This document shows, piece after piece, positions 6,009-47,890 of a DNA stretch of 64,000 bases. Numbering within the stretch: the stretch's first letter is position 1; each line of letters begins with the position of its first letter. The position numbers and the translations under genes were made by a program. Source of the stretch: a virus; IMG/VR virus record IMGVR_UViG_3300042924_004713, positions 64,001 through 128,000 of that record. One strand, written 5' to 3'. The notes under the pieces are model-generated. The model had not been told where the DNA came from. It made no database searches and was given only the letters and a program-made list of their open reading frames with translations.

Positions 6009-6383
6009 ATGAAAATTCTAGATCAAGATTTTAGATTTGAATGGTTTAGTTCCACTGGTGGCGGTGGACAACATCGCAACAAACATCAGAACTGTTGTCG
6101 TTGTATCCATGTGCCCACTGGCATACAGGCCAATGGCACTTCAAGTCGCAGCAGAGAAGACAATCGCAAGAATGCTCTAGCAGTGTGTCGTGCTAGAGTA
6201 CAACGACATTTTCACAAGGATACCGAACGTTATCGTGCTTCCAATGAACGTGTACGCACATATCATGAAGTAGACAATCGAGTGTATGATCATGCTTCGG
6301 GCTTGACTGACACCTATCAAAATGTCATTGTCAAGGGCAATGTTGACAAACTGATTCAAGCCCGAGCACAAGCTGTAAAATAA
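6009..6383 (+). CDS. truncated class I release-factor-like peptidyl-tRNA hydrolase (GGQ; ArfB/PrfH-like)
   Basis: GGGGQHRNK, HVPTGI, SRSREDNR and RVRTYH...RVYDH motifs of RF domains 3-4; no stop-codon-reading domain. Confidence 0.85.
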   Translation: MKILDQDFRFEWFSSTGGGGQHRNKHQNCCRCIHVPTGIQANGTSSRSREDNRKNALAVCRARVQRHFHKDTERYRASNERVRTYHEVDNRVYDHASGLTDTYQNVIVKGNVDKLIQARAQAVK

Positions 6384-6466: not shown

Positions 6467-6545
6467 GCCCCCATGGACAAATTGGCAAAGTCGGCTCTCT
6501 CAAAAGGAGCAGTTGTTCTCCGTTCGAATCGGAGTGGGGGTACCA
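6467..6545 (+). tRNA. tRNA-Leu(CAA), short variable loop
   Basis: Loop CTCAAAA, A73-CCA. Confidence 0.9.
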
Positions 6546-6548
6546 AAG

Positions 6549-6570
6549 AAAAACCCGCCGAAGCGGGCTG
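6549..6570. terminator. hairpin between the tRNA array and pqqA
   Basis: CCCGC-CGAA-GCGGG with an upstream A-run (U-tract on the minus strand). Confidence 0.7.
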
Positions 6571-6589: not shown

Positions 6590-6664
6590 TTAGCGATTAG
6601 CGATATACATGGTGATTTCAAAACCAAAACGCATATCTTGTGCTGAAGGTGTAGTCCATGCCAT
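6590..6664 (-). CDS. pqqA: PQQ precursor peptide PqqA (MAWTTPSAQDMRFGFEITMYIANR)
   Basis: Manual reverse translation; W-x-x-P and RFGFE-x-x-x-Y signature; AAAGGAG RBS; terminator downstream. Confidence 0.95.
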   Translation of the reverse strand: MAWTTPSAQDMRFGFEITMYIANR

Positions 6665-6796
6665 GTTAGTTCTCCTTTGATAAAATTAACATACTGCATT
6701 AGTATGTAGCTCTATTATATGGCACAGGTCATGCTGAATCTTGCGTAATCTGCACAATTATGTATAGTGATTTTCATTAAACTTTAAGGAACCAGT

Positions 6797-7324
6797 ATGC
6801 CTTGGATTCAAAACATTTCATTGAGTGAAGTAATTAGGGGACACCACTACGATCCAGGTGTAAATTCCATGCTGATACAGATAGTGGATCCCGGTGTAGA
6901 GTTTCCTGAGCCCAAATACACATTCAAGGAGCGGCATCAGTTCTTTTTTCTAGACATTGAAGCTACGGATCGTAGCATAGATGAATCCTGGCGTTGTAGT
7001 CCTGAGCAGGCCAAGCAACTAGTAGAGTGCCTGCAACACGCCTTGGCTAATTCCATGAACGTGGTTGTGCATTGCCATGCTGGAGTGTGTCGTAGCGGTG
7101 CTGTTGCAGAAGTTGGAGTACTCATGGGTTTCCAGGATACCGAAGACTTTCGCAGTCCCAATCTCTTGGTCAAGCATCTAATGATGGAAAGTCTTGGCCT
7201 GGGATATGATCCTGAGGAAAAGCACAGCATCAATGGCGTGGCTTTAGCAGAGGATTGGACCACGGACAATGAAAAGGTTTTTATTTTGGCAGATGCCAAA
7301 AAGCAACGTAGGTTGACCAAATAG
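6797..7324 (+). CDS. dual-specificity/tyrosine phosphatase-like protein
   Basis: VHCHAGVCRS (CX5R) motif. Confidence 0.85.
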   Translation: MPWIQNISLSEVIRGHHYDPGVNSMLIQIVDPGVEFPEPKYTFKERHQFFFLDIEATDRSIDESWRCSPEQAKQLVECLQHALANSMNVVVHCHAGVCRSGAVAEVGVLMGFQDTEDFRSPNLLVKHLMMESLGLGYDPEEKHSINGVALAEDWTTDNEKVFILADAKKQRRLTK

Positions 7325-8321: not shown

Positions 8322-9323
8322 ATGCATAACCAAGATCTGCTAACTTCCTATGGCATAAACCAATCTATGTATCAACAGGTACTAGATCATATGTTCCCAC
8401 TTGACATCTATGAGTACGCAAGTAGAAAAGCCTATCTAGCAGAACGAACCAATCCCAATCGTGATCCAGGCTACGATATTCGCAATCAACAAGCATGGCA
8501 ACGTAGCTATGAAAACATCAAAGATCCCAGCTGGCCTGACTGCGCGACCCCAGATCACTTTGCAAACCTTCCACTACACATTCAACAGGAATGTATCACC
8601 CAACACGGCTTCAGCGCCGACATCTGGTTAGATCCCAATATACCTTTTGAAAAATTCCAAAGAGACCCAACCTGGCAACTTGATGCATTTGATATAGTGA
8701 GACTCAAGCTCGCATTGGTGGATAACCTTGACTCAATCAAACACAGAAAAATCATAGACTTTGGCACACATATTGGCTTGCTAGGCACTGTGTGTTTGCA
8801 CAATGATGCCGAGCACGTGATAGTCACCAACATCAAAAGTGATTGTCTAAGCATCGCTGATGAAATGCTGGCACTGAACAATCCACTGCGCCATCGTTTT
8901 CGTGCAGTGCTGAGTAACATAAACGATCTAGGAGAAACCGAAGCCTTGTGTTATGATCGCGACACAGTGATATTAGCAGCGATCATGAACATTGTTACTG
9001 ATCACTTTGGTATCATGCGTGCTATCACTCGGTCTAGACCCAAAACAATTATCATACAAAACTGGAATCCTCCTGTGATTGCCGCCCATCCAGTGCCACT
9101 GGTTTATTGGTGGTTGGAAGATGCCACTGTGGCCTGGAAAGGCTTTCATCCCACTGACATGGAAACTCGAGTGGGATGCCCAAACAAAGCTTGGTTTGAT
9201 ACCATACTGGGTGATTTTGGTTATCAGTTAAGCAAGTACACCCTGACCGACATCTCCAGTCCTTTTGCTGCGCTGTCACAGCATCAATTTGAATTCATGA
9301 CCTTGGTGTATGAGCTCAAATAA
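8322..9323 (+). CDS. class I SAM-dependent methyltransferase-like protein
   Basis: IIDFGTHIG motif-I-like segment; N-terminal SYENIKDPSWPDC extension. Confidence 0.6.
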   Translation: MHNQDLLTSYGINQSMYQQVLDHMFPLDIYEYASRKAYLAERTNPNRDPGYDIRNQQAWQRSYENIKDPSWPDCATPDHFANLPLHIQQECITQHGFSADIWLDPNIPFEKFQRDPTWQLDAFDIVRLKLALVDNLDSIKHRKIIDFGTHIGLLGTVCLHNDAEHVIVTNIKSDCLSIADEMLALNNPLRHRFRAVLSNINDLGETEALCYDRDTVILAAIMNIVTDHFGIMRAITRSRPKTIIIQNWNPPVIAAHPVPLVYWWLEDATVAWKGFHPTDMETRVGCPNKAWFDTILGDFGYQLSKYTLTDISSPFAALSQHQFEFMTLVYELK

Positions 9324-10857
9324 ACGAACCATTGTGATAGCCAGCTTGCCCTATCAAACTCCGGGATGGCCTGCCACGGCTCCTGCGTTGCTCAGTGCCT
9401 GTCTCAACAAAGCAGGAATCAGTGCAGTGCCAGTGGACCTGGCAGCTGAATTTGTGGCTGACTTTGTGGACAAATGCTACTGGCCAGAACTACTGTTCTA
9501 TATTAGTCAGGGTCCTAATCCAGATCGCAAACTGCCAAGACGTGTGTTTATTGATATACTAAAATGGAATAGACGCAAACTCTTGCAGATCAAACGCGAC
9601 TATGATCCAGACATCATGGGTTTGAGTGTGTTCAGTGTGATGAGTGAAACCTATCTTACCTTGATGTGCTACAGTATTAGAAGGTGGTTGCCGGGCGTAA
9701 AAATACTAGCAGGTGGTCGAGGTCTAGAAATTCTCACACAGGGAGAATACACCGGTGATACACATGCCACTGGCAGCAGAGCACGTTGGCTTGTTGAACA
9801 AGGCATGATTGACTGTGCTGTTACTGGAGATGCAGAAAGCTTTATAATCGACGTAATCAAACAAGACTTATATGGAGTTGTAGATTCACCGCCGCAGACA
9901 TCTGCTGATTTAAATCAGGTTCCTATACCAGACTGGGACAATTATGATTTTGATCTATATCAAAGATTTAATCCATCAGATCGTTATCTACTGATCACAG
10001 ACAGCAAAGGTTGTGTGCGTCGATGCACATTCTGTGATGTTGAGCATCTATGGCCCCGGTATATTTTTAAAGATGGCGAGCTCTTGGCAAAAGAAATGAT
10101 TGAAAGTTATCATCGCACTGGTATTGACTTTTTTAGATTCAGTGGTAACTTGATAAACGGTAGTATACCAAACTATCGCAAAATGAATCAGTATCTAGCT
10201 GATCACTTGCCTCGTACTCTACGCTACAGTGGTTACGCTATATTTCGTGGCAGAGAAAATCAGCCACCTAAAGATTTTGAACTAGCAGGACGTGCAGGTT
10301 GCCTTGAATGGATCATTGGTGTTGAAAGTGGCAGTGAACGCATACGATATGACATGCGCAAGAAGTTCAGTAACGCAGACATAGACTACACTGCCAATCA
10401 ACTACACGACAATGGTATCAACCAGGTATGGTTATTCATGGCTGGCTACCCCATGGAAACCGAAGAAGACTTTGAACAAACGCTTAACCTACTGCGCAAA
10501 TATCGCCATTGGGCCCGAGATGGTAGTTTGCGTGTGGCAATTTCATCGCCATTTACGCTGGGTGATCAAGTGCCATTGACCAATGATGACCGACTACGCA
10601 ACTACTATCACTTTGAACGTGAGCAAGTGGTCAAAGGTTGGAGTCATATTTTTTGGCACACACCAACCAATCCAGACAACACATATGAAACACGTTTTCA
10701 CCGTTATAGAAGATTTCTAGAACTGCAACAGGAACTGGGTTTTGGAGACCGTGACGGGCAAGAAGCAGATCGTATGTTAAGAGAACAGCAGGAAGTATAT
10801 GAACAATATCTTGAAGCCAAAAAATCTAAAAAAACTTTCGCTATACGCAAGATCTAA
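9310..10857 (+). CDS. B12-binding-domain radical SAM protein
   Basis: CVRRCTFC, GVESGS...MRK, GLSVFS and AGG...GDAE cobalamin-domain motifs. Confidence 0.85.
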   Translation: MSSNKRTIVIASLPYQTPGWPATAPALLSACLNKAGISAVPVDLAAEFVADFVDKCYWPELLFYISQGPNPDRKLPRRVFIDILKWNRRKLLQIKRDYDPDIMGLSVFSVMSETYLTLMCYSIRRWLPGVKILAGGRGLEILTQGEYTGDTHATGSRARWLVEQGMIDCAVTGDAESFIIDVIKQDLYGVVDSPPQTSADLNQVPIPDWDNYDFDLYQRFNPSDRYLLITDSKGCVRRCTFCDVEHLWPRYIFKDGELLAKEMIESYHRTGIDFFRFSGNLINGSIPNYRKMNQYLADHLPRTLRYSGYAIFRGRENQPPKDFELAGRAGCLEWIIGVESGSERIRYDMRKKFSNADIDYTANQLHDNGINQVWLFMAGYPMETEEDFEQTLNLLRKYRHWARDGSLRVAISSPFTLGDQVPLTNDDRLRNYYHFEREQVVKGWSHIFWHTPTNPDNTYETRFHRYRRFLELQQELGFGDRDGQEADRMLREQQEVYEQYLEAKKSKKTFAIRKI

Positions 10858-12084: not shown

Positions 12085-12234
12085 ATGATAGTCTGTGTAT
12101 GTAGAAATATCCGTGAATCAGATTTTCAAACCAAAGAAGAATTGGTTAAACGCATCATGGAATTGGATCACAACTGTGGACAGTGTCAGCAATACTGCGA
12201 ACAGCTAAAAGAATTGTTGTATGAAGCAAACTGA
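12085..12234 (+). CDS. Bfd-like [2Fe-2S] protein (49 aa, MIVCVCRNI...NCGQC)
   Basis: Manual translation; CxC...CGxC cysteine pattern of bacterioferritin-associated ferredoxin. Confidence 0.75.
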   Translation: MIVCVCRNIRESDFQTKEELVKRIMELDHNCGQCQQYCEQLKELLYEAN

Positions 12235-12560
12235 AAAGGGTTCTGGACGCGGGTTCGACTCCCGCCTGGTCCACCATAAGGAGATTGTATGCCAGTAGAC
12301 ATGTACTACTATACCGAAAGCGAATGGAACAGATTGGGCTGCGGCCCACTGCCTCCAGAACGCAACATACTTAATCGTCAGTCTCTTTATGATGGGCCAG
12401 ACATGGTTTCGACAGGGTCAAGAGTAGGCAAGCAGACAACACGAGAGTCGACTGACGTAATCAGCGAAACATAGTAACTGCAAACGCAGCTAACGACGAG
12501 GTATTCGCTCTCGCAGCGTAACCTCCGGGGCAGTTATGCCTTGTAACCCAAAATAGCAAG
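12215..12560 (+). ncRNA. ssrA: circularly permuted (two-piece) tmRNA
   Basis: Acceptor piece (T-arm GCGGGTTCGACTCCCGC, CTGGTCCACCA ending 12276) precedes the coding piece (GGGCCAG at 12394, G3.U pair, TTCGAC); tag ORF 12480-12521 ANAANDEVFALAA*; outer ends approximate. Confidence 0.92.
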
Positions 12561-12580
12561 CCCGCTTCGGCGGGCTTTTT
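12558..12580 (+). terminator. intrinsic terminator
   Basis: AAGCCCGC-TTCG-GCGGGCTTTTT. Confidence 0.9.
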
Positions 12581-12597
12581 CATGAATAAATATCAGT

Positions 12598-12798
12598 ATG
12601 TGGATATTGATCATCAGCATGTATTTGGCACAACCTTTGGGACAGACCCAAAGCAAAGGCATTATTCAAGCACCACAACCTGACTATGAAAGCTGTATAC
12701 GTGAACGTGACCGTATAAGAGCCACTTGGTATACAGAGGGATACAAGGTTAGCCCTCGCTGCGTCTACGTCAAACACTATAACTCCCGCGGCATGTAA
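12598..12798 (+). CDS. small hypothetical protein
   Basis: ATG follows TAAATA-N5; hydrophobic N-terminus, two Cys. Confidence 0.65.
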   Translation: MWILIISMYLAQPLGQTQSKGIIQAPQPDYESCIRERDRIRATWYTEGYKVSPRCVYVKHYNSRGM

Positions 12799-12821: not shown

Positions 12822-12850
12822 TTGTAACACAGTTGTAATACCATTGTGTT
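12822..12850 (+). promoter_or_regulatory. Pho-box-like 11-bp-period direct repeats
   Basis: TTGTAAC-ACAG-TTGTAAT-ACCA-TTGTGTT upstream of pstS. Confidence 0.6.
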
Positions 12851-12891
12851 TAAATATTCTTTGTGCATTGCACACAAAATGGAGATTACAC

Positions 12892-13917
12892 ATGAAAAAA
12901 CTTTTGTACGCGGCATTGACGGTGCTGTCATTTAATGCCTGGTCTGCTGATCTAACAGGCGCAGGTGCTACTTTTCCTTATCCTATCTATGCCAAATGGG
13001 CTGAAGCATATAAAGCAGCCACAGGTATTGGTCTAAATTATCAATCAATTGGTTCTGGTGGTGGAATTCGTCAAATCAAAGCCAAGACAGTTGACTTTGG
13101 TGCTAGTGACATGCCACTAAAGCCTGAAGAATTAGACAAAGAAGGTCTAATGCAGTTTCCTGCTATAATTGGCGGAGTTGTGCCTGTTGTTAATCTAGAT
13201 GGTATCGCAGCTGGACAGTTAAAACTAACTAGTGATGTAGTAGCTAACATTCACCTAGGCAAAATTACCAAGTGGAACGACAAAGCAATCACTGATTTGA
13301 ATCCCGGTGTAAATCTACCTGCCATTAATATCACTGTAATTCATCGTGCAGATGGCTCTGGTACAACATTCGTGTGGACCAACTACCTTGGCAAGGCCAA
13401 TGCTGACTTCCAAAAGACAGTGGGCGAAGGCACAGCAGTTAAATGGCCAGTTGGTATAGGCGGCAAAGGCAACGAAGGTGTAGCAGCACAAGTACAACGT
13501 ATCAAAGGTGCCTTTGGTTATGTAGAATATGCTTATGCAAAGAAAAACAAAATTGCTCACGCACAATTGAAAAATCGCGATGGTAACTTTGTTCAACCAA
13601 GCGACGACACATTCAAAGCAGCAGCAGCCAATGCAGATTGGGCTAATGCACCAGGAATGTATCTGTTGTTGACATGGCAAACTGGTAAAGAGGCTTGGCC
13701 TGCAACAGGTGCAAGTTTTATTCTAATGCACAAGCAACAAGCTGATCCGCTTACCGGACGTGCTATTCTTAAATTCTTTGACTGGAGCTACAAGAACGGT
13801 GCAAAAATGAGCGAAGAACTAGAATATGTACACATGCCTCAATCAGTTATTAAACTGATTCAAGATAACTGGCGTAAGGATCTCAAAGGTCCTGATGGTA
13901 ACACAATCTGGAAATAA
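12892..13917 (+). CDS. pstS: phosphate ABC transporter substrate-binding protein
   Basis: GAGATFPYP, YQSIGSGGG, DFGASD, RADGSGTT motifs; signal peptide. Confidence 0.97.
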   Translation: MKKLLYAALTVLSFNAWSADLTGAGATFPYPIYAKWAEAYKAATGIGLNYQSIGSGGGIRQIKAKTVDFGASDMPLKPEELDKEGLMQFPAIIGGVVPVVNLDGIAAGQLKLTSDVVANIHLGKITKWNDKAITDLNPGVNLPAINITVIHRADGSGTTFVWTNYLGKANADFQKTVGEGTAVKWPVGIGGKGNEGVAAQVQRIKGAFGYVEYAYAKKNKIAHAQLKNRDGNFVQPSDDTFKAAAANADWANAPGMYLLLTWQTGKEAWPATGASFILMHKQQADPLTGRAILKFFDWSYKNGAKMSEELEYVHMPQSVIKLIQDNWRKDLKGPDGNTIWK

Positions 13918-13926
13918 GGATCTATT

Positions 13927-15333
13927 ATGAAGACATTTACAAAACTAGCCTTGTCAATAAGTTTGATATTCAGTGTGCCTGCATACGCAGATGAATATTT
14001 GGATACTCTAAATATTCTACGAGACAAAGGCATATTGACACAAAAGGAATATGATGCCAAGGTCAAAGCCTACGAAGACAAAGCGGAAAACAAAAAGTTT
14101 GCAGAACAGCGAATTGACAAAGATGTTAGTGACTCAGTCAAATACAGACAAGCCAGAGCCAACGACGGATCAGTCACAGAAAATGGAATCGGACTCAAAA
14201 GCAAAGATGGAAACAATACCATCCAACTTACAGGTCGATTACACATGGACTATAGACAATACTCACCAGATTACGGTGCAGGTCAAACCACGGATTCGTA
14301 TCAGGACCTAGCTGAAGTTCGTCGTGCTCGATTTGGTGTGCGTGGCCAATTCCAGAAGGATTTCAAATATGAGATCGTGGGGAATCTAGGCAATGACATA
14401 GGTGCAGCAAGTTCCAGTACCACTATGGATGTAGCCTGGGTCAACTACGCTGCTAATCCAGAGGCTCAGTTTCAATTTGGTTTATTCAAGATGCCTTTCA
14501 GCTTAGAGCAACTTACCAGCTCCAACAACATTGATATGATGGAGCGTAGTTTGATTGGTCAAACCGAAGGCGAATTCATTCCTGCCAAAGAAACAGGATT
14601 TATGTTGCATGGTGTGCCAAAGACTGGTCTTACCTATGCTGTGGCAGTAAGTCGTGGCCGTGCCAACAAAGATGCAGTGAATGACGGACTTGATTATATT
14701 GGTCGAGTGACTACTAACATTGCAGACCTGCAAGGCAGCAAGGCCTATGTAGCACACCTAGGCGCGGCATATAGCACAGGTGAGATCAAAGGTGGTGTCG
14801 CACCTGCCAGTGGTCGTACCGAAGCACGCAGTGCAAATGCCTGGTTCACTGGCCCAGCATTAGGAGGTATAACTTCAAGAACACGTCAAGGACTTGAAGC
14901 AGCGTTTGCCTATAATGCCTTGAAAGTACAAGCGGAGCAATTTAACTTCAAGTATGATCCTACCACTGGTAATGATCAAGACATTCGGGGTTATTATGTG
15001 TTGGCAGTGTATAATCTTACCGGTGAAAGCTATAACTACCGTGACGGTGTCTTTGGTTCAATCAAACCAAACAATCCAGTAGACAAAGGTGGCCGTGGTG
15101 CTTGGCAAGTGGGCGTGCGTTTAAGCGAGTTTGATGCCAGTGATATCGCTGTGGCCACAGGTAAATCAAATCGTGCAACAGCCATGACCTATGGTCTAAC
15201 CTGGTTTACCACCGAAAACCTACGCTTTATGATAAACTACGTAGACACTAAGTTTGACAGTCTAGTTGGCAGCTCAGGAAGTCGTGTAAATGGCGATCGT
15301 GCTTTGATGTTTAGAAGTCAATTCAACTTTTAA
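13927..15333 (+). CDS. OprO/OprP family phosphate-selective porin
   Basis: RRARFG, FKMPFSLEQLTSSN...ERS, C-terminal Phe; operonic with pstS. Confidence 0.9.
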   Translation: MKTFTKLALSISLIFSVPAYADEYLDTLNILRDKGILTQKEYDAKVKAYEDKAENKKFAEQRIDKDVSDSVKYRQARANDGSVTENGIGLKSKDGNNTIQLTGRLHMDYRQYSPDYGAGQTTDSYQDLAEVRRARFGVRGQFQKDFKYEIVGNLGNDIGAASSSTTMDVAWVNYAANPEAQFQFGLFKMPFSLEQLTSSNNIDMMERSLIGQTEGEFIPAKETGFMLHGVPKTGLTYAVAVSRGRANKDAVNDGLDYIGRVTTNIADLQGSKAYVAHLGAAYSTGEIKGGVAPASGRTEARSANAWFTGPALGGITSRTRQGLEAAFAYNALKVQAEQFNFKYDPTTGNDQDIRGYYVLAVYNLTGESYNYRDGVFGSIKPNNPVDKGGRGAWQVGVRLSEFDASDIAVATGKSNRATAMTYGLTWFTTENLRFMINYVDTKFDSLVGSSGSRVNGDRALMFRSQFNF

Positions 15334-38016: not shown

Positions 38017-39071
38017 ACCTGTCCCTTTGATGAATGATCGTAACCTGGACGTAGTTGTGCAATCTGTTGTTGCTTGTAATCAGAGTCGGTCCAACAATAA
38101 TCATACTCACCAACTACCCCGTCAACTTCTACTCTAAACACATCAAGATGGTCACTTAGAGTTGGCCATATTTTCTGATAATCCTTGCTGCCAAAGCTTG
38201 CCTGCAGATCAACGCTGGCTATTGGCAAGTATCCAAGACTGAGTTTGGGATCACGATAGTCAAGACCATTTGATTCTAACCACTCATAAAAGCCATCTAC
38301 TTCAAATCGCCACCAATCATGAGAGTCATAACGTATATCGTTGCCCCATTCTATGTCAAACTCACCGCTGTAGTATTCTAGATGTGTAATGGCTTCGCAT
38401 ACTGTTTGTGTTAGTTCGGGTGCACCTTCATCACGATAAACTTCAAACAGTGTTTTGCCAATCTGTGCCCAATGCATATATACCTCGCCTAGATGTCGAT
38501 CATAACAATCTATGCTCCAGGGTCTACGATGCTGCTCTTGTAGTTGGTATCTTGGTGCGTTGAGCCAGGTATTGATCTGACTCAGGCGTACCCATTCAGG
38601 TGCTGTGCGTTCTCTTAATTTGCTGAGCACAAGACTCTCAAGTTCATGGCACACTGTGTTCAGCTGACGTATAGCATACTTGGTTTCGTAGTCAGCACGC
38701 CTATAGTAATCACTGAGATGATTAACAGTGCCTTGTAAGATTTCAAAATGATTATGAACTTGATTTAGTATAGTTTTGTCAACTATAAGTTCTGAAGCAC
38801 TCACACGATCACTGATATGATAGTCGAGGTCGCTGTGATTAATCGTGTCCACGGCTGAGTTGAGTTCATCGCACAGATAATCAAGACTACGAGCTCCGTT
38901 GGGGAAGCCCATGAAACAAAAGTTTTTTTCAATTTTATTGTTTTTGAGCAAAATCTTGAGTGCATCAATCCAGTCACGTGCCAAGAGTGTGTCATGGACC
39001 CGGATGATCACTTCCACAGTGCTGCTCTTTTGCACTGGATTTCGTAAAATCATTTTAACTAGAGATGTCAT
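38013..39071 (-). CDS. hypothetical protein
   Basis: Long ORF within the operon. Confidence 0.8.
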   Translation of the reverse strand: MTSLVKMILRNPVQKSSTVEVIIRVHDTLLARDWIDALKILLKNNKIEKNFCFMGFPNGARSLDYLCDELNSAVDTINHSDLDYHISDRVSASELIVDKTILNQVHNHFEILQGTVNHLSDYYRRADYETKYAIRQLNTVCHELESLVLSKLRERTAPEWVRLSQINTWLNAPRYQLQEQHRRPWSIDCYDRHLGEVYMHWAQIGKTLFEVYRDEGAPELTQTVCEAITHLEYYSGEFDIEWGNDIRYDSHDWWRFEVDGFYEWLESNGLDYRDPKLSLGYLPIASVDLQASFGSKDYQKIWPTLSDHLDVFRVEVDGVVGEYDYCWTDSDYKQQQIAQLRPGYDHSSKGQV

Positions 39072-40365
39072 GCCACCATGCCTCTAACACTGGATTCTGT
39101 TTGACTATGTCTGCCATGATCAATTTATCTTTACGTATTTTCTCTAATTGTAACACAGTTTGCCGACCTTTTTGCACAGCATCTGGATAAACGTCGGGCC
39201 ATGTTTCTTCAAAAGTTGGACGTTCAAGAAGTTGTTGCAGCAAATCACGCATCACTGTGGTTTGACATTGAGCCAACAAAGGCCGTACTATTGCATCAAG
39301 CGCAGGCCTAGGCAGAATCAAAGGACTCCAGATGTTATCTGGTGTAAAAGCAAACACGGTTTTGGCAAGCAAGCCACAGCCAAGTTCCTTGGCCAACTGT
39401 TCAATAGCCAAGACTTCAGTCAAGCCAGGTAGAGTAAGAGTGAAATCTATGCGCATCTGTCTGGCATGCTTTGCATAACTCATTCCTTCTTTGAAATTTT
39501 GTAGCCATGTTTGATAATCAAGACCGTATCTAATATATTCTCCGACACTGCCGGTTCCGTCGAGGCTAGCGCAGATTTGCCAGTCTCTAACCTTCGCCAA
39601 AATGTCTTTGAAAAGACCAACGCCAAGATGATTAATCCTGCTAAGATTTGTATTATACCTTGCGTAAACACTGGGACCGTCTCCTAGTTCAATAATGCGC
39701 TGCATGTACCGCCAGTGTTGCTCGTACATCAAGGGTTCGCCGCCTACCCAATAGACTTCTTCCACACGGTGTTGTTCTACTGCATCAGAGAATTCTTGTT
39801 CTATTACACTGTCTTGAAATGCAGTGATTTGTTTTTTGATTTCTGGACGCATCCAGTGGTTACGGTTGTCAGTCCAGTCCACAAGATCATGCTGTTTGCG
39901 CTCACTTTCCCATGCACTGCTCAACATGTCTCCACACATACGGCATTTAAAATTGCATAGGTTGGTAAATCTATAGTCCCAACTAACTGGCTGCATGGTT
40001 GTGGCACCTGATTCGTCAGTGGAGCTCTGTACTTCAGGCCATTTGTGCGCAAACAAATGATTAAAATAGTCACGATAAACATCAGTGTTCAATAATTTGT
40101 TGTTGCACACTTCACATTCAGGCAGTGTTTCACCTGCTAACATGCGACGACGCACACTGCGCATGTGGTCTCCATTCCAGTGTTGTTCAAGCGTAATGGG
40201 TATGTAACGACCGGTGCCTGCTGCTGTGTCAATATACTGTTGAAAATTCTGTGCAGGTTCACGACTGGCACAACACATTCTACGTTCGGTCTGCGGTGAC
40301 AGATACGTGTGTGTCCAAGGTGCCATGCACAAAGTATCAGGCTTAGGAGTAGTCAACTGGGCCAT
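39055..40365 (-). CDS. N-terminal twitch/SPASM radical SAM protein
   Basis: CMAPW...CC...CEVC followed by CNFKCRMC and GGEP. Confidence 0.88.
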   Translation of the reverse strand: MAQLTTPKPDTLCMAPWTHTYLSPQTERRMCCASREPAQNFQQYIDTAAGTGRYIPITLEQHWNGDHMRSVRRRMLAGETLPECEVCNNKLLNTDVYRDYFNHLFAHKWPEVQSSTDESGATTMQPVSWDYRFTNLCNFKCRMCGDMLSSAWESERKQHDLVDWTDNRNHWMRPEIKKQITAFQDSVIEQEFSDAVEQHRVEEVYWVGGEPLMYEQHWRYMQRIIELGDGPSVYARYNTNLSRINHLGVGLFKDILAKVRDWQICASLDGTGSVGEYIRYGLDYQTWLQNFKEGMSYAKHARQMRIDFTLTLPGLTEVLAIEQLAKELGCGLLAKTVFAFTPDNIWSPLILPRPALDAIVRPLLAQCQTTVMRDLLQQLLERPTFEETWPDVYPDAVQKGRQTVLQLEKIRKDKLIMADIVKQNPVLEAWWHDISS

Positions 40366-41578
40366 CGTAGTTTATGATATATGCTAGATCAGGACAAGCG
40401 TCTGCAAGATTCTGTTGTCGTACAGTGTCTAATCTGCTGATCTCGTAGGTCAAGGTACCGCCTTTACCTACACCCATCCAACCTTCTTTGGCTCGCATAA
40501 ACGCAATGATGTTCTTACGATCTTCTGCATAGGGATGATCTATACGTTCTCTTAACAGTTGACTGATAATTCGTTCTTTGATGGCTTCCACAACATTTTG
40601 CACACACCATACTGGTGAATCGTGTAGATAATTCCAATAAACAAAGTCCCAAGGAAAGGATGCTGCCCACTGAGCTATGGTATTAAAGTATAGAACGTTC
40701 CAAATGCTAATGGTACAGCAGAGTTGCAACTGAATATTAGAGCTGGCTTCTCTTAGTTGTCTAAACTTTTCTAGGTTGTTCATTACCTCTGGCCACTTGG
40801 CACCTGTGCGCTGATATTCAAATCGTTGACCTATGTCATCAATGCTGAGTGCAATTTCTACTAATTTAAAATGGGGCCAGAGTTCTACGCCTTGTTCTGG
40901 ATAGTGTGTGCCATTGGTGTTGTAGTGTATTTCAATATTGTGTGCCAAACCACGATCTACAAGAGTCTGCAAAAAGTCAAAGTGTTCTTGAATCATAAAT
41001 GGCTCACCGCCCGTGAATTCAAGATACCGTATCTGTTCAGCAAATTCATCTAACTGCTGCCAGAACACAGTGCTTTCTTTGGGCCATCGACCTTCTCTCA
41101 ACATTTTGTACGCATAGGTTTGCTTACGGTCCAAGGTCATTATTTGACCAACCTCTTCACTGGCAAATGTACTACTACTCCATGGCCCACATATTCTACA
41201 CTTGAGATTACAGATGTTGCCTAGTTTAAGATCTAAAAAAATTAGATCATTGGCATCTTCTGTCCATGTCATGTCTGTGATTAAGTGTTTTAATCGCTCC
41301 AGTGTGTGTTGTCGTTTGGAGGTTCCTCCACTGGCTTCAACTGACCAACAACGCTCACACGTGGCCGGAAGTTCACCTGCAATGAATGCACGTCGGAGTT
41401 CGCGCATGTGACTGCTATCTCGTATTTGATCGAAGGTCGCAGAGGTAAGTTGGTATTTGTCATTGTGTTCATCTACTATTTCATCCTTGGCCAAACAACA
41501 TGGGCGTACAGTACCAATTGGGCTGGTTTCCAAACTTACCCATGGCAGTATACAAAAAGTTTTATTGGGCAGTGTCAT
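40343..41578 (-). CDS. N-terminal twitch/SPASM radical SAM protein
   Basis: CILPW...PCC...CERC followed by CNLKCRIC and GGEP. Confidence 0.88.
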   Translation of the reverse strand: MTLPNKTFCILPWVSLETSPIGTVRPCCLAKDEIVDEHNDKYQLTSATFDQIRDSSHMRELRRAFIAGELPATCERCWSVEASGGTSKRQHTLERLKHLITDMTWTEDANDLIFLDLKLGNICNLKCRICGPWSSSTFASEEVGQIMTLDRKQTYAYKMLREGRWPKESTVFWQQLDEFAEQIRYLEFTGGEPFMIQEHFDFLQTLVDRGLAHNIEIHYNTNGTHYPEQGVELWPHFKLVEIALSIDDIGQRFEYQRTGAKWPEVMNNLEKFRQLREASSNIQLQLCCTISIWNVLYFNTIAQWAASFPWDFVYWNYLHDSPVWCVQNVVEAIKERIISQLLRERIDHPYAEDRKNIIAFMRAKEGWMGVGKGGTLTYEISRLDTVRQQNLADACPDLAYIINYDGPVDYS

Positions 41579-42858
41579 AGATCTTGCAGTTCGGGTAACA
41601 CGGATAACATGCTCTCTCCACGAATCTCGTCTAGTTGTTGAGACTTAGCCCAAAACTCAGGCAATTTTTCGCTGTTGTCTCTACTGTCCATAAAAGTTAT
41701 AGCACTTTCAAATCCTTGACTTGCACGTTTAAAGGGATCCAAAGGCTGTAACCATTCGATGTGTTCACGAAACTTGGCACGCAGCTGATCTTTATATCGC
41801 GCACTGGCCACATCTATTCTATAGTGCGGAGGATCTTGCAGAATGTTTACGTTTAGGTCTTGAGCTCTGATCAACCCTCGACTTACCCAATCACGGTGAA
41901 AGTCTGGCAGATGCCAGGCATTCATTAAACTTAGAGTAGGACTTATGTAAAAGTCAACATTGGGGCATATCTCTAGCATGCGTTCACGATTGCGTTCAAC
42001 TGTGTCCCAGTCTGTGCCTTTGCGAATGTATTCTGCTCGTTCGCCCATGGCATCAAGGCTAGCACCCACACTCACTGAATCAAAACGTCGCCAATAGTCA
42101 AAAACTGATCTTGATTTGAGTTTGGTCTGCGTAAAGTTAGTGTTGTAGATCAGTCTTACATCAAACCTACCTCTGCGCTCCAACTCTTCAAGAATGTTAT
42201 AATGCTCCTCCATCATGAGTGGCTCACCGCCAGCAAAGTAAATTTGTTCTACATAGTCAAGATGCGGTAACAATTGTTCCCACATGTCGGTTTCAGTACG
42301 TCCCGCATAGTTCATAGCTGGAAATAGTTTGCCCCACTCAGGTCCTGCTAGCTTGACTTGATCAGCATACCAACTACTGGAAAATATAAAACCGCAGCTA
42401 CGACATCTTAAATTACAGAGATTACTAAAACGTATATCCCAGTATGTCATTTCAAATCTGTCAAGCCGGCCAGTTGAATCTGTTTCATCAACACGATTGA
42501 TATGATGACCATGATGCTTGTTGGCTGCTTGTCGTCCGCTCATGAAACCGGTTTTTTCCTGTTCATAGCATCTTACACACCCTGCGCTTTCACGTTCTTC
42601 TAACATGTTCTGGCGCAGATTGCGCATTGGAGCTTGATTCCAAATTTCTTTTAATGTGTTCTTTTTACAGTGTCCTACTGATTGCCACATGGTGCTGTGA
42701 CAGCACGGATGCGCTTCACCAGTTGGATAGGTATGCAAATGTATCCATGGATAGATACAAAAAGTTTTACTCTCGGTTAGCAGGAACTTTTGACGATCTG
42801 TTAGAGAATCAAAATTTATCTTGACAGGGCGAGGATCGTTGTAGTCAGATTTGGTCAT
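41575..42858 (-). CDS. N-terminal twitch/SPASM radical SAM protein
   Basis: CIYPW...PCC...CVRC followed by CNLRCRSC and GGEP. Confidence 0.88.
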   Translation of the reverse strand: MTKSDYNDPRPVKINFDSLTDRQKFLLTESKTFCIYPWIHLHTYPTGEAHPCCHSTMWQSVGHCKKNTLKEIWNQAPMRNLRQNMLEERESAGCVRCYEQEKTGFMSGRQAANKHHGHHINRVDETDSTGRLDRFEMTYWDIRFSNLCNLRCRSCGFIFSSSWYADQVKLAGPEWGKLFPAMNYAGRTETDMWEQLLPHLDYVEQIYFAGGEPLMMEEHYNILEELERRGRFDVRLIYNTNFTQTKLKSRSVFDYWRRFDSVSVGASLDAMGERAEYIRKGTDWDTVERNRERMLEICPNVDFYISPTLSLMNAWHLPDFHRDWVSRGLIRAQDLNVNILQDPPHYRIDVASARYKDQLRAKFREHIEWLQPLDPFKRASQGFESAITFMDSRDNSEKLPEFWAKSQQLDEIRGESMLSVLPELQDL

Positions 42859-44179
42859 ACCATTGTCCTATTTCTTTAAAAGTTTCTGCAAAGTTTTTTC
42901 CTCGTCTTGTATCATACTGTTGATAGAAACGTTTGAAATCTTGCCTTAATACAGGCAAATCAAAAGCTTCGCTGTGTGGAGTTTTAACTACGTCAAGGTA
43001 ATCAATCAAACGTTGCACATGATTGCGTTCATGTGGCTGTAGGAAAACGTGACGATCAAATGTATTTAACCATGACTGCAACTGATCGCGGTACTTGGTG
43101 CGTAGATAATCAGGTAGTACCAAGGGACTTTGAAAACTTGGAAAACGCAGTATGTTTAGTGTGAAATTAGGAAAGTCTGCGCCGTATTGACTTTTCCAAG
43201 TCAACATCAGTGTAAGGAACTCTGGCAAACTTTCTAAACACAATGCATTGACTGTACACATCATGTGCAGTCCACGTAGTTGATCATGATGATTTTGAAT
43301 AATATGTTCTACTTTAGTAACCCAATCATTCCATTCAAGACCGTCACGAATGTATTCAGCGTGTGCGCCCATGCTTTCGTTACTGGTATAAAGATCTATA
43401 GGAGCATCAATACTAGCAAACAGCCTATCTATGTCAACCTGACTGCCTAGGTTGCTGTTGATTGCCAGTCTGGTCTTGCTCCGACCTTTATTGTGTTTGA
43501 ACCAATCTAATAACTTCCAGGTATACCCAGACATCAAAGGCTCACCGCCGGTGATACGTAGTTCGTCAAGTGTTAGGTGTAGGTCAGATTCCCACCAGGA
43601 GAAAAAGGCGTCCACGTAAGGATTGCTTTCACCGAATCTATAAAGTTGAGCGCCAGCGTGATCATGAGTGAAATGATTGCGACCGTCGCTTGCCAGTCCC
43701 ACATAGGGCCCATTTTGATGTATGTCGCGTACCCATGTGCTGCTAAAGGCGGGATTGCAATAACTACAAGCAAATTGACAAGTACGATCAAAACTAATCT
43801 CCAGAGTTCGGAGATTGATATCTTCCGTGATTGGTGCGTGCTGTGCATAGGTTATGTCCTCTATGGTGTAAATTTTGGACTTGTATACACGATCACTTAC
43901 AGCATCGCGTCCCATGTCCTCTATTTTCCAACAATATTCGCATCCTGCTGGACGTTGGCCACGTTGCATCTTCTCGCGGTCTTGTTTTTTCTGTGGCGTA
44001 TTGTGCAGTAACTTAGGGTTAGCACGGACATTATCAGTGTCCACTAAATGAGCAGGCGGGTGGTGACATGATGTGGTCATGCCTGAACCCAGCCAAATGG
44101 TTGCATTGTACCACTTTGCTGCACAAAAACTTTGAGAAATAGGATCAAGTATCCTATTCTTGAATTCTAAATCATTCAT
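42845..44179 (-). CDS. N-terminal twitch radical SAM protein
   Basis: CAAKW...SCHHPP...CEYCW followed by CQFACSYC and GGEP. Confidence 0.88.
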   Translation of the reverse strand: MNDLEFKNRILDPISQSFCAAKWYNATIWLGSGMTTSCHHPPAHLVDTDNVRANPKLLHNTPQKKQDREKMQRGQRPAGCEYCWKIEDMGRDAVSDRVYKSKIYTIEDITYAQHAPITEDINLRTLEISFDRTCQFACSYCNPAFSSTWVRDIHQNGPYVGLASDGRNHFTHDHAGAQLYRFGESNPYVDAFFSWWESDLHLTLDELRITGGEPLMSGYTWKLLDWFKHNKGRSKTRLAINSNLGSQVDIDRLFASIDAPIDLYTSNESMGAHAEYIRDGLEWNDWVTKVEHIIQNHHDQLRGLHMMCTVNALCLESLPEFLTLMLTWKSQYGADFPNFTLNILRFPSFQSPLVLPDYLRTKYRDQLQSWLNTFDRHVFLQPHERNHVQRLIDYLDVVKTPHSEAFDLPVLRQDFKRFYQQYDTRRGKNFAETFKEIGQWYDQI

Positions 44180-45333
44180 CTTGTCAGTTTGTTGTCTCTT
44201 ATAAACTGTATAAATCTTTCAGGAAACTCTTGTCGAACTTTTTCTCGCATGTTCCATAGGTGTTTTTGATTATACTCGCAAACAGGTCTTGCTGCTGCTA
44301 AAAAGTCTTTGAGATTCGCTGTACTCTTGCAAAGATCTACAACAATATCTCTTATTCGTGTGATTCGATCCATGTCATTGTCAATAGTGTCAAATGTTTC
44401 ATCAATGATATGATCAAATGTGCGAAAACCCAAGCTACGCATATCTCTGTAATAACCAACATTGGCGACCGCTATCCATGGGTGCCCAATGGCAATTGGT
44501 TTCCAAATTTTTTCAGTTCTAAAACTATATGGATAGCTAAACACAGTTTCAGTTACCAGACTAAAGTAAGTATCAATATAAGGCTTAGGCTCTATATAAA
44601 TCTCGCCCCACTCTAATTTGTTGTTAAAATCAAAAAGTTGATCTTTTACAAAACCAGGTACTAGATCAGATTTTAAATTTTTACGATACCTGTCAACTTC
44701 ATATTGCTCTGGTAGCAATTGAACTGGTATTGTTTCTGCTACTAAATCTACTCCATTATGAATAAGTTTAAGGTCTTGTGTTCTCCCTGCGAATGTATCC
44801 AAGTTAGTCCACAAGCTTTGATCCAACAGCCCGGATAATTTAAAACTTTGCAACAAATATTTTCTATGAGGTCTACTCCGTCCATTCAAAAACAAAAATT
44901 TATAAGGTTTGTCTGTTGTATTGTAAATGTCATCGGTGTACTCGTACACATTTTTATTTTTTGGCACGTCAAAAATTTGAGGCAAAAAACTTTCATATTG
45001 CAAATGATTAAATTGCGATTCTATATCGCCGCCACCTATTAACAGCATCCGACCTTGAACATTGTATTCTTTCAGCCCCAACTCAGTGACTTGCCATTTA
45101 AGTGTATCTGCGCCTTCAGTGGGATTACTGACTATGATAAAGGACTTACCGCTTTCAATTGTTTCTCTAACTTTGTCAATGTTATGATTTGTCTGTGCTC
45201 GCCCAAGTACATAGATCGCATTTTCAATCAGTGTCTCTTTGCCAAAATCCCAGAATGTTCCATCAGTATACTCTTTGATCAAATCTGTAATCTCTGAGTA
45301 AATATCAACAAATAGTTTTTTTCTACCAATCAT
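44176..45333 (-). CDS. TEK-x-x-KPI family glycosyltransferase-like protein (paralog 3)
   Basis: FLFLNGRSRPHR, TET...FRTEKIWKPI. Confidence 0.6.
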   Translation of the reverse strand: MIGRKKLFVDIYSEITDLIKEYTDGTFWDFGKETLIENAIYVLGRAQTNHNIDKVRETIESGKSFIIVSNPTEGADTLKWQVTELGLKEYNVQGRMLLIGGGDIESQFNHLQYESFLPQIFDVPKNKNVYEYTDDIYNTTDKPYKFLFLNGRSRPHRKYLLQSFKLSGLLDQSLWTNLDTFAGRTQDLKLIHNGVDLVAETIPVQLLPEQYEVDRYRKNLKSDLVPGFVKDQLFDFNNKLEWGEIYIEPKPYIDTYFSLVTETVFSYPYSFRTEKIWKPIAIGHPWIAVANVGYYRDMRSLGFRTFDHIIDETFDTIDNDMDRITRIRDIVVDLCKSTANLKDFLAAARPVCEYNQKHLWNMREKVRQEFPERFIQFIRDNKLTR

Positions 45334-45396
45334 TTGGTGTGCCTTTTGTATTCCTGCCAGAACATCATCTCTGGATTCGTATTCACGGTTTGAATT

Positions 45397-46539
45397 CTAA
45401 ATCATCCATTGATTGTTGTTTAGTAATTTGAAAAACTTATCAGGAAAGTCTTTGTTGATCTGTTCCCTAAGGTGTATCATGTGATCTTGATTATATTTAC
45501 AGATGTCTCTAGCAGCTTCGAGGAATTCACGCGGTGATTTACAGATATCTATTATAACATTGATCACTCCTCGAAGTCTTGCATGATTATCTTCAATGTT
45601 GTCAAAACTTTCATCTATAATGCCATGAAAGGTTCTAAATCCCATGTTTCGAAGATCACGATTGAATCCGGCATTGGCTACACATACCCAAGGATGCCCA
45701 ATGGCTATTGGTTTCCAGATTTTTTCTGTTCTAAAACTAAAAGGCTTGTCGTGTACTGTTTCGGTTACAATGCTAAAATAGGTATCAACATAGGTATCCA
45801 GATTTAGGTAAATGGCTCCCCATTCTTCATTGAACAGAGTAGGCATAGCATACTTTTGATCACTAAACTGCATGTCAACTCTGTTTTGATAACGTTGCAC
45901 TTCATACTTACTGGGTAATAGTTTGATAGACCTTGGCCTGTTCATCAAATCTATACCATGTTGTTCTAGACACAAAGATCCATCATCAATGAAATTTGGA
46001 TCCAACCAAGTCCATAGTGCTTGATCAAGCAGTCCAAGATAGTCTAACTGTTCAACCATCCACTTGCGATGTGGCCTGGCCCTGCCGTTCAAAAACAAAA
46101 ATTTATATGGCTTATTGATTTTGGTATAGATCTGATCACTGTGTTGTATTACTTCTAAGTTTTCTGGAAAATGATGAACTTTGCTAATAAAATGATCATG
46201 TCTAAGATAATCACAATCAACACGTATGTCACCACCGCTGATCAAAAGTATCTTCTTTGAAAGCAGTAGATCTTCAAAACGCAGTTTGCGTATGATGTAA
46301 TGCAGAGTTTCACTGCCTTCAAACGGATTACTGTATACCACTCGAATGTTGGAATCAACCAACTGTCTGATCAATCTATTGTACTTGGCGAATTGTTTGC
46401 GGCCAAACACATATACCCGGTTGGGTGTTGGTAACACTGTGGCAAAGTCGTGAAATGTTTCTGTTGCCCAAGGACGTAGTAATTCTGTGGTCTCACAGCC
46501 TTCGTCAAGTGATAGATTGAGCGTTGGCATGTGATTCAC
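45397..46539 (-). CDS. TEK-x-x-KPI family glycosyltransferase-like protein (paralog 4)
   Basis: FLFLNGRARPHR, TET...FRTEKIWKPI; close paralog of 44176-45333. Confidence 0.6.
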   Translation of the reverse strand: MNHMPTLNLSLDEGCETTELLRPWATETFHDFATVLPTPNRVYVFGRKQFAKYNRLIRQLVDSNIRVVYSNPFEGSETLHYIIRKLRFEDLLLSKKILLISGGDIRVDCDYLRHDHFISKVHHFPENLEVIQHSDQIYTKINKPYKFLFLNGRARPHRKWMVEQLDYLGLLDQALWTWLDPNFIDDGSLCLEQHGIDLMNRPRSIKLLPSKYEVQRYQNRVDMQFSDQKYAMPTLFNEEWGAIYLNLDTYVDTYFSIVTETVHDKPFSFRTEKIWKPIAIGHPWVCVANAGFNRDLRNMGFRTFHGIIDESFDNIEDNHARLRGVINVIIDICKSPREFLEAARDICKYNQDHMIHLREQINKDFPDKFFKLLNNNQWMI

Positions 46540-47890
46540 ACTCTAACCAAAAGCTGGTCATTTCAGGAAATACCTGTTGAAACGCATTTGAATCATTGAA
46601 CATCCTTCTGCTGTACTCGCTGAAAAATCTGTAGAAGTCAGCTCTAGCCATGGTGATTTCATCTGTGTTTTGTGGCTCACTCATCCAGGCCAAGGCTCGC
46701 TCCATGCGCTGTACTTCATAGTCTTTGAATCCCACAAAACTGTTGTCTTCCATCATGTTATCACGCATAAAGTCAATGGCCTGACGCATTCTGCGTTGAT
46801 AGGATTCAGGTAATATCTGTAAGCTCTGCCAACGAGGATTACGCAACACCGGAGTATCAAACCAAACTTTTTGATAGGTTTTTGAATATCTGGATCTGAG
46901 TTCCAAGATATAATCTAGCAGTGCATCTATGCCTACTATACTCAAGTTGTTCAAGGTCACAATAAAAGTCAGGCTGTTTTTTTCTTGAACATTGTCAAGG
47001 TAACTGTTGACATTGGCCAAGAACTGAGTTGAATGCATGCCACGTCTGATGTATGCTGCCTGTGTCCAGTCTCCTGTGTCAATACTAACATACTGCATGA
47101 AGTGTTCAATCTTGGTCGCACATAGCTTTTTTATATACTCTAGGTACCCTAGAAAAATCTCTGTTGGCACACTGAAATTACTAGTGACATCTATGTGCAA
47201 TTCAGGATGTGGCGATGCCAGTATGTAATCAAAAACCTTGTAGGTGTTTTTGTCTAGTATTGGCTCACCACCAGTCATACGGAAATGACGCAGACGTGGA
47301 TAAAGTTGTGGCCACCACCGCCAAAACGCATCTAGATAAGGATTGTGTTCTCGCACAGGTATAGGTCTTTTGCGTCCTTTGAAGTGCGCAGGATCGTTGT
47401 GAGGTATTCGAGTAGGAAAGGCACCATGCCTCTGCGCATCTTCCATCCAGGTAGAACTAAACTGTGGACTGCAATAGCTACAGGCTAGATTACAAACATT
47501 GCTAAAATTAACTTCAACGTAACTGGGTATTATATCTTCGTCGCCAGACAATGCGTCCAAATCAATCTCAGCCCAGGGTTCGCCAGATCGATAGTGACGA
47601 TCACTAAGTTCGCCAAGATCCTCCATGTTCCAGCAGTACTGACATTCACTAGGTCGCTCATTACGCAGCATGATTTTGCGCTGTGTTTTTTTATAAGGCG
47701 TGTTGTGCAAGGCACTGGGATTGTCAGCCAAAAGCGATACATCTATTTCGTGCAATGGCGGATGGTAACAACTATTGGTCATGCCCGTGGTCAGGTGCAG
47801 ACTTACCTGCTTCCATTTAGCGTAGCAACGTGCAGGACCTAGCTTGTCGCGCATCTCTTCTGCGTTGTTTAGAAAAACACTTTTAGACAT
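46505..47890 (-). CDS. N-terminal twitch radical SAM protein
   Basis: CYAKW...SCYHPP...CQYCW followed by CNLACSYC and GGEP. Confidence 0.88.
   Translation of the reverse strand: MSKSVFLNNAEEMRDKLGPARCYAKWKQVSLHLTTGMTNSCYHPPLHEIDVSLLADNPSALHNTPYKKTQRKIMLRNERPSECQYCWNMEDLGELSDRHYRSGEPWAEIDLDALSGDEDIIPSYVEVNFSNVCNLACSYCSPQFSSTWMEDAQRHGAFPTRIPHNDPAHFKGRKRPIPVREHNPYLDAFWRWWPQLYPRLRHFRMTGGEPILDKNTYKVFDYILASPHPELHIDVTSNFSVPTEIFLGYLEYIKKLCATKIEHFMQYVSIDTGDWTQAAYIRRGMHSTQFLANVNSYLDNVQEKNSLTFIVTLNNLSIVGIDALLDYILELRSRYSKTYQKVWFDTPVLRNPRWQSLQILPESYQRRMRQAIDFMRDNMMEDNSFVGFKDYEVQRMERALAWMSEPQNTDEITMARADFYRFFSEYSRRMFNDSNAFQQVFPEMTSFWLECESHANAQSIT

Follow-up and report, generated by a model that had tools for sequence, protein, structure and literature searches.

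The DNA analysed here, a 64,000-nucleotide stretch of a viral record from IMG/VR (the window), encodes a 24-residue PqqA whose promoter contains a 17-bp palindromic box that matches one in the pqqA promoters of Burkholderiales, placed at the spacing found in those hosts. Judged by this promoter architecture, the viral pqqA is most likely a host-regulated precursor-supply gene and not a plain gene for use after host shut-off.

The viral pqqA gene and its genomic context

PqqA was read by translation of the window at 6590-6664 on the minus strand, as originally predicted, and was confirmed in profile searches by scores above the cut-offs of both PF08042 (39.4 bits against 21.1; E 5.7e-10) and TIGR02107 (38.4 against 20 bits). 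The E-x-x-x-Y core is present near the C-terminus as E16 and Y20 and the leader is intact; by sequence, the peptide is a genuine PqqA. Searches for a solved structure and for a PHROG returned none for this peptide. The gene lies where an array of 28 tRNA genes ends and, in agreement with the antisense orientation first described, both of its neighbours, a tRNA-Leu (6467-6545) and a dual-specificity-phosphatase-like ORF (6797-7324), are on the plus strand. The dedicated ribosome binding site and terminator of the original prediction were also recovered, and an AGGAG-like site is found upstream of most viral pqqA copies. The cassette, of approximately 230 bp, most likely constitutes a self-contained auxiliary metabolic gene (AMG) unit. 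The features of the locus are:

6590-6664, minus strand: pqqA ORF, 24 amino acids, E16-x3-Y20 (translation, PF08042/TIGR02107, pS versus pN)
6672-6678, minus strand: Shine-Dalgarno site (sequence)
6552-6569, minus strand: intrinsic terminator, stem and T-run, converging on the tRNA operon (sequence; kept in relative G356)
6689-6707, minus strand: predicted 5' leader hairpin with a 7-bp stem and a 5-nt loop (folding)
6703-6708, minus strand: TACATA, a late-promoter-like hexamer that differs from TAAATA at one position and follows the box at 55 nt (sequence; putative function)
6714-6719, minus strand: TATAAT, a -10 box of sigma70 type that follows the palindromic box at 44 nt and has no recognisable -35 (sequence)
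6764-6780, no strand assigned: 17-bp palindromic pqqA box, centred at about -65 from the inferred start (match to the Burkholderiales pqqA promoter box)

The viral record is linear, 166,408 bp long and 48% complete according to CheckV. Among its products are a T4-type major head protein, which shares 67% identity with its counterparts in jumbo phages such as PA5oct, a portal, a prohead protease and a DNA polymerase. From this gene content, the carrier of pqqA is a T4-like jumbo phage and the locus is viral, not host contamination. The same peptide, ribosome binding site and terminator were found unchanged in five further assemblies of the phage, and the pqqA locus is therefore not chimeric. 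A relative, G356, is colinear with the record across 114 kb at approximately 77% identity; the pqqA cassette itself is 95% identical between the two and the flanks 70-84%. The concern that the contig might be cellular or chimeric at this point is thus answered by the phage genes, the five assemblies and the colinear relative. G341, a second record, shares the capsid module at 90% and continues for about 150 kb where the present record stops, so that it probably represents the missing half; both derive from one sample, which, to judge by the sample numbers, is probably part of a time series from a lake.

Genes for pqqB, a pqqC fold, pqqD, a true pqqE and PQQ dehydrogenases, whether adjoining pqqA as in a pqqABCDE operon or elsewhere in the genome, were not found in the 166-kb record (48% complete), and PqqB, C, D and E found no match in the record, G356 or G341. 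No PqqD or PQQ dehydrogenase was detected in 15 pqqA-bearing viral records, four of them at least 90% complete; a TIGR02111 (pqqC) search of 15 viral records was also negative, but had no positive control. The reported lack of pqqBCDE in the window thus holds and extends to the rest of the 166 kb, which supports the idea of a stand-alone viral pqqA that would rely on host PqqB-E.

Prevalence and selection of viral pqqA

A pattern scan of IMG/VR identified pqqA in at least 117 viral contigs, with approximately 70 distinct PqqA peptides among the matches listed. None of 92 dereplicated viral loci has pqqB downstream, in contrast to 89 of 111 cellular copies. Nine records of cultured Methylophilales/Methylophilaceae phages contain pqqA, left unannotated or labelled as a hypothetical protein; every cultured Methylophilales phage returned carries it, and it also occurs in phages of 35-44 kb. 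At some viral loci (L016, L076, L091, L046) the pqqA stop codon is followed by recurrent short conserved sequences unlike simple terminators, possibly structured RNAs, which are absent from the window.

The novelty implied for a phage PqqA was not borne out, since viral PqqA had been published before. The available text of Coutinho et al. (2020; PMC7678222 / 10.1101/2020.04.02.019802) reports it for the Lake Baikal population VP_266, and pqqA has been named as a viral AMG in reservoir sediments (PMC13188868). As described in that text, VP_266 resembles the present case in carrying pqqA on a T4-like freshwater phage, as a proposed AMG feeding host PQQ synthesis; it differs in encoding a methanol dehydrogenase, which was not found in the present record (48% complete), and in its assignment to Methylophilaceae, and the text contains no analysis of promoter or regulator. 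Viral pqqA is an established AMG, frequent and mostly left unannotated.

The viral coding sequence is under purifying selection. When compared with 48 viral copies with the same C-terminus, pS was 0.48 and pN 0.065, and in the columns not fixed by the search pattern pS was 0.45 versus a pN of 0.145. Pro6 did not vary in 100 distinct sequences, in which all four of its codons are used.

Probable host

The prediction of a PQQ-making host was supported, and the predicted host is a Burkholderiales bacterium. The last 15 residues of the peptide are identical to those of 120 sampled cellular copies (19-21/24 overall), which belong to Comamonadaceae (Limnohabitans, Rhodoferax, Polaromonas), Limnobacter and Rhodocyclaceae. 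This C-terminal type was absent from 201 genomes of the Methylophilaceae-type family, and the exact N-terminal pattern had no match in GTDB genomes. The tRNAs reach identities of 79-95%, the top full-length match being a tRNA-Gly of Methylophilaceae type (93-94%). PstS reaches at best 69-70% within Burkholderiales genomes, with 58% in Limnohabitans DM1 and mostly 52-61% in Methylophilaceae-type genomes, values that do not discriminate between the families. A Comamonadaceae-like host is somewhat favoured; a member of the Methylophilaceae is a rather unlikely choice, and a host elsewhere in the Burkholderiales slightly less likely again. The Comamonadaceae candidates encode one to three PQQ dehydrogenases of the methanol/ethanol family (TIGR03075).

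A two-piece (permuted) tmRNA of betaproteobacterial type lies at 12163-12612 on the plus strand of the window (128 bits, RF01850), whereas Limnohabitans-type genomes have the one-piece form. Because the two-piece form is common to many related phages, it is no host marker. Many viral loci have a related tmRNA in the vicinity of pqqA. A permuted tmRNA that resembles the phage type is also present on a 51%-GC stretch of a Burkholderiales MAG (L260:1522-1917), possibly a mis-binned phage contig.

A pqqA box shared by hosts and phages

In Burkholderiales pqqA promoters the palindrome CTCATGA-N3-TCATGAG is found, typically 44 nt before the -10; a second, weaker copy follows the palindrome some 23 nt downstream. 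The box is rare in host genomes, where its top matches lie before pqqA or pqqB, and it is nearly confined to pqq promoters; the sole site within one mismatch in the 4.9-Mb genome of Limnohabitans DM1 is that of pqqA. It also precedes pqqA in four RuMP-positive Methylophilaceae-type genomes outside the training set. A description of this palindrome, or of a phased host box, was not found in the literature, of which few subscription papers were searchable. In one Methylophilaceae-type genome of 1.3 Mb, an 18-bit box-like site (L541:2498) precedes a pair of genes whose N-termini look rhodopsin-like on visual inspection and which may share the regulon.

A matrix built from 38 host sites only was applied to the viral loci with a threshold of at least 7 bits. 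The box was found upstream of pqqA in 39 of 92 loci, versus 1.5 expected from shuffles and 4 of 270 control upstream regions of the same loci; the other 53 copies have no box. When the loci are clustered by their flanking DNA, 14 of 32 clusters contain box-bearing copies. Among cultured phages with pqqA, Melnitz has a box that scores 10.6 and P19250A a weaker one of 5.4. Their upstream genes represent 26 families among 35 and are co-directional in 25 of the 35. From this distribution the box is independent of the upstream gene and goes with pqqA, including in G356. It also follows the type of peptide: among host pqqA genes with Ala two residues before the conserved Asp, 47 of 49 have the box, versus none of 41 with an aromatic residue there, and the viral counts are 38 of 75 for the Ala type versus 1 of 17 for the aromatic type. 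The window peptide is of the Ala (Ala8) type.

With the matrix from bacterial pqqA promoters only, the window box scores 8.3 bits and ranks eighth of approximately 166,000 positions, so that seven sites in the record outscore it and the match, taken by itself, is modest. The box of G356 ranks first in its own record with the host matrix, and a 23-bit site lies inside a coding region of G341. A TTGAC -35 is present at other promoter-like sites nearby, unlike at the pqqA -10.

Phasing of the box with a late-promoter-like element

The distance from box to -10 is 44 nt in hosts and 44 or 22 nt in phages. TAAATA occurs 56 times in the record, is present in 23 ORF upstream regions, and appears to be the phage late promoter. 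A hexamer that differs from TAAATA at no more than one position begins precisely 22, 33 or 55 nt past the box in 34 of 39 box-bearing viral promoters; when the register was shifted by 1-5 nt, 0-3 such hexamers remained. Three layouts were distinguished: the late-like hexamer at 22 nt (17 cases), the -10 at 22 nt with the late-like hexamer at 33 nt (13 cases), and the -10 at 44-45 nt with the late-like hexamer at 55 nt (5 cases, including the window). Host promoters have no phased late-like element.

In the latter two layouts the hexamer overlaps an arm of the leader hairpin, in the window the 5' arm, and TACATA could thus be conserved for the sake of the hairpin and not as a promoter element. 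The whole unit folds at z -3.6, and a stem of varying sequence occurs at the same place in most of the box-bearing copies folded; the leader folded by itself has a weak alternative structure.

The viral gene thus shares with cellular pqqA (Comamonadaceae, Limnobacter, Rhodocyclaceae and orphan Methylophilaceae copies) the C-terminus, Ala8, the box and the 44-nt spacing, and departs from it in the late-like element added to its promoter. We tentatively suggest, at somewhat less than even confidence, that an undescribed Burkholderiales-wide operator controls pqqA, and that phages of diverse kinds have joined it to their own late-type element as well as to sigma70 promoters, at distances (22, 33 or 55 nt) that keep the helical phase.

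Candidate regulator and proposed mechanism

Divergently from pqqA, Limnohabitans DM1, an Albidiferax MAG and strain MiE-M12 have an operon for a prolyl aminopeptidase, a kinase of the HAMP-HisKA_3 type and a response regulator of the NarL/LuxR type (WP_090142752.1 in DM1). Apart from the query genome, 15 hosts have close homologues (50-77%); these occur in box-bearing hosts, among them Methylophilaceae-type genomes of 1.3 Mb. Limnobacter has only a 40% match to the regulator, and Limnobacter promoters have no box. No homologue was found in five phage records. From adjacency and co-occurrence only, this regulator is the best candidate for the protein that would bind the box. Regulators of the NarL/LuxR type control quinoprotein genes in Pseudomonas and Methylobacterium, and the PedS2/PedR2, EraSR and MxcQE systems resemble the candidate in pairing a HAMP-HisKA_3 kinase with a LuxR-type regulator tied to PQQ metabolism (PMC6115532, which gives no binding motif). 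In several Comamonadaceae (L543:13084-16183, L544:7206-10214) the prolyl aminopeptidase heads the operon diverging from pqqA; the L544 protein exceeds the TIGR01249 cut-off and is possibly linked to PqqA processing or recycling.

The viral pqqA promoter carries a host regulon motif at the host-type position, as do host-controlled phage genes of the Pho-box type. Since the spacing is precisely that of the host, the regulator of the infected cell probably switches pqqA on. A -10 without a -35, combined with this box and a late element that is one mismatch from TAAATA, argues for control by a host activator and leaves the proposal of expression after host transcription is shut off unsupported. 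The closest parallels are the PhoBR-dependent cyanophage genes (pstS of P-SSM2 and genes of S-PM2d, PMC10976474), in which a phage auxiliary gene has a site for a host two-component system; the present case differs in the regulator, the motif and the pathway, which supplies a cofactor precursor, and its site is known from sequence alone. Phage boxes predicted for a host regulator are not always bound (PMC10976474).

In the proposed mechanism, the host activator, for which the NarL/LuxR-type regulator is the candidate, would bind the viral box when PQQ is needed and would drive the -35-less sigma70 promoter early, the degenerate late element perhaps being active later. The product would be a short, stable mRNA with hairpins protecting both ends. 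One PqqA is consumed per PQQ made, the PQQ enzymes are reusable, and extra orphan pqqA copies are typical of bacteria with a high PQQ demand. Viral PqqA would be consumed by host PqqD, E, B and C as extra substrate, topping up PQQ for periplasmic dehydrogenases of the alcohol/methanol family and so sustaining respiration in infection. The benefit would apply only while the PQQ regulon of the cell is on. PqqB and PqqC have been proposed as limiting for PQQ (PMC9851590), and PqqA supply may not be the limit.

If this mechanism is correct, a host two-component regulator would activate a viral cofactor-precursor gene, and the phage would read the alcohol/methanol-oxidation state of its host. Host-sensor control of phage genes would then extend from phosphate to carbon and cofactor metabolism, and the arrangement suggests that a host activator may act on a phage late-type promoter. 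The promoter also names a candidate operator and regulator of PQQ precursor synthesis for abundant freshwater bacteria in which PQQ regulation is poorly defined. Viral support of PQQ probably reaches past obligate methylotrophs to Limnohabitans-like hosts.

Alternative explanations

A genuine precursor-supply gene could also be expressed by the phage programme alone, with the box as a relic of capture. The late-like hexamer, the departure of the window box from the host consensus, and the perfect TAAATA found within 100 nt in 11 of the 53 box-less viral copies are in line with this. It is nevertheless unlikely: relatives differ in the DNA that separates box and -10 but have kept the box and its spacing, and most box-bearing copies have a degenerate late element. 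Moreover, the box has been moved by two whole helical turns and paired with a phage-type element in 34 of 39 promoters, which argues against a passive relic. It is much less probable that another protein, of the Fur family or of the phage, binds the site, or that the box is the -10 or leader of the divergent phosphatase gene. The AT-rich variants of the phage box do resemble a Fur 7-1-7 core, and a plus-strand TATAGT that shortly precedes ORF 6797-7324 overlaps the site. A Fur box was rejected because only 13 of 19 positions match the 19-bp consensus, a level also reached at 41 sites in the record, and the centre is T-rich and not TAA. The divergent-promoter reading was rejected because pqqA keeps the box where its upstream gene runs in the same direction or is a different one, as in G356; a variant two bases away also lies 44 nt before the -10-like hexamer of a cellular orphan pqqA (L506).

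Extra PQQ might instead serve as an antioxidant or be secreted to block competitor phages that use a PQQ receptor, or the peptide or box might titrate PqqD or the regulator. PQQ blocks a PqqU-targeting phage in E. coli (PMC12124388), and the box was not found before most host dehydrogenase genes. These roles were considered marginally more improbable than a different binder, given that E16, Y20 and the leader are intact, fitting a substrate and not a decoy, and that pqqA occurs in every cultured Methylophilales phage returned. Least probable is a viral RiPP, with the peptide as a substrate of the phage's own radical-SAM/SPASM enzymes. Several radical-SAM genes do lie at 39-48 kb of the window, two of them with SPASM, and another at 9310-10857 has a weak B12-binding match. 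This reading was rejected because no PqqD/RRE was found in the record (48% complete) and no enzyme resembles PqqE, host PqqE giving no tblastn match and TIGR02109 only 17 bits versus a cut-off of 381; the peptide is also a canonical PqqA that recurs in the 35-44 kb phages.

Other features of the window

The radical-SAM cluster itself extends over 39055-47890 on the minus strand, and the SPASM domain of two members is N-terminal; the record has no RRE. A 124-residue stand-alone GGQ release-factor domain is encoded within the tRNA array (6009-6383, plus strand), with no DNA match at the syntenic place in G356. At 12892-15333 on the plus strand lie pstS and a gene for a phosphate-selective porin; PstS has many relatives at 84-92% identity, several of them on large contigs. 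Upstream of pstS (12822-12856, plus strand) are two Pho-box-like half-sites 11 nt apart, followed after a further 11 nt by a perfect TAAATA, a second instance in this phage of a host-regulator-like box before a late element.
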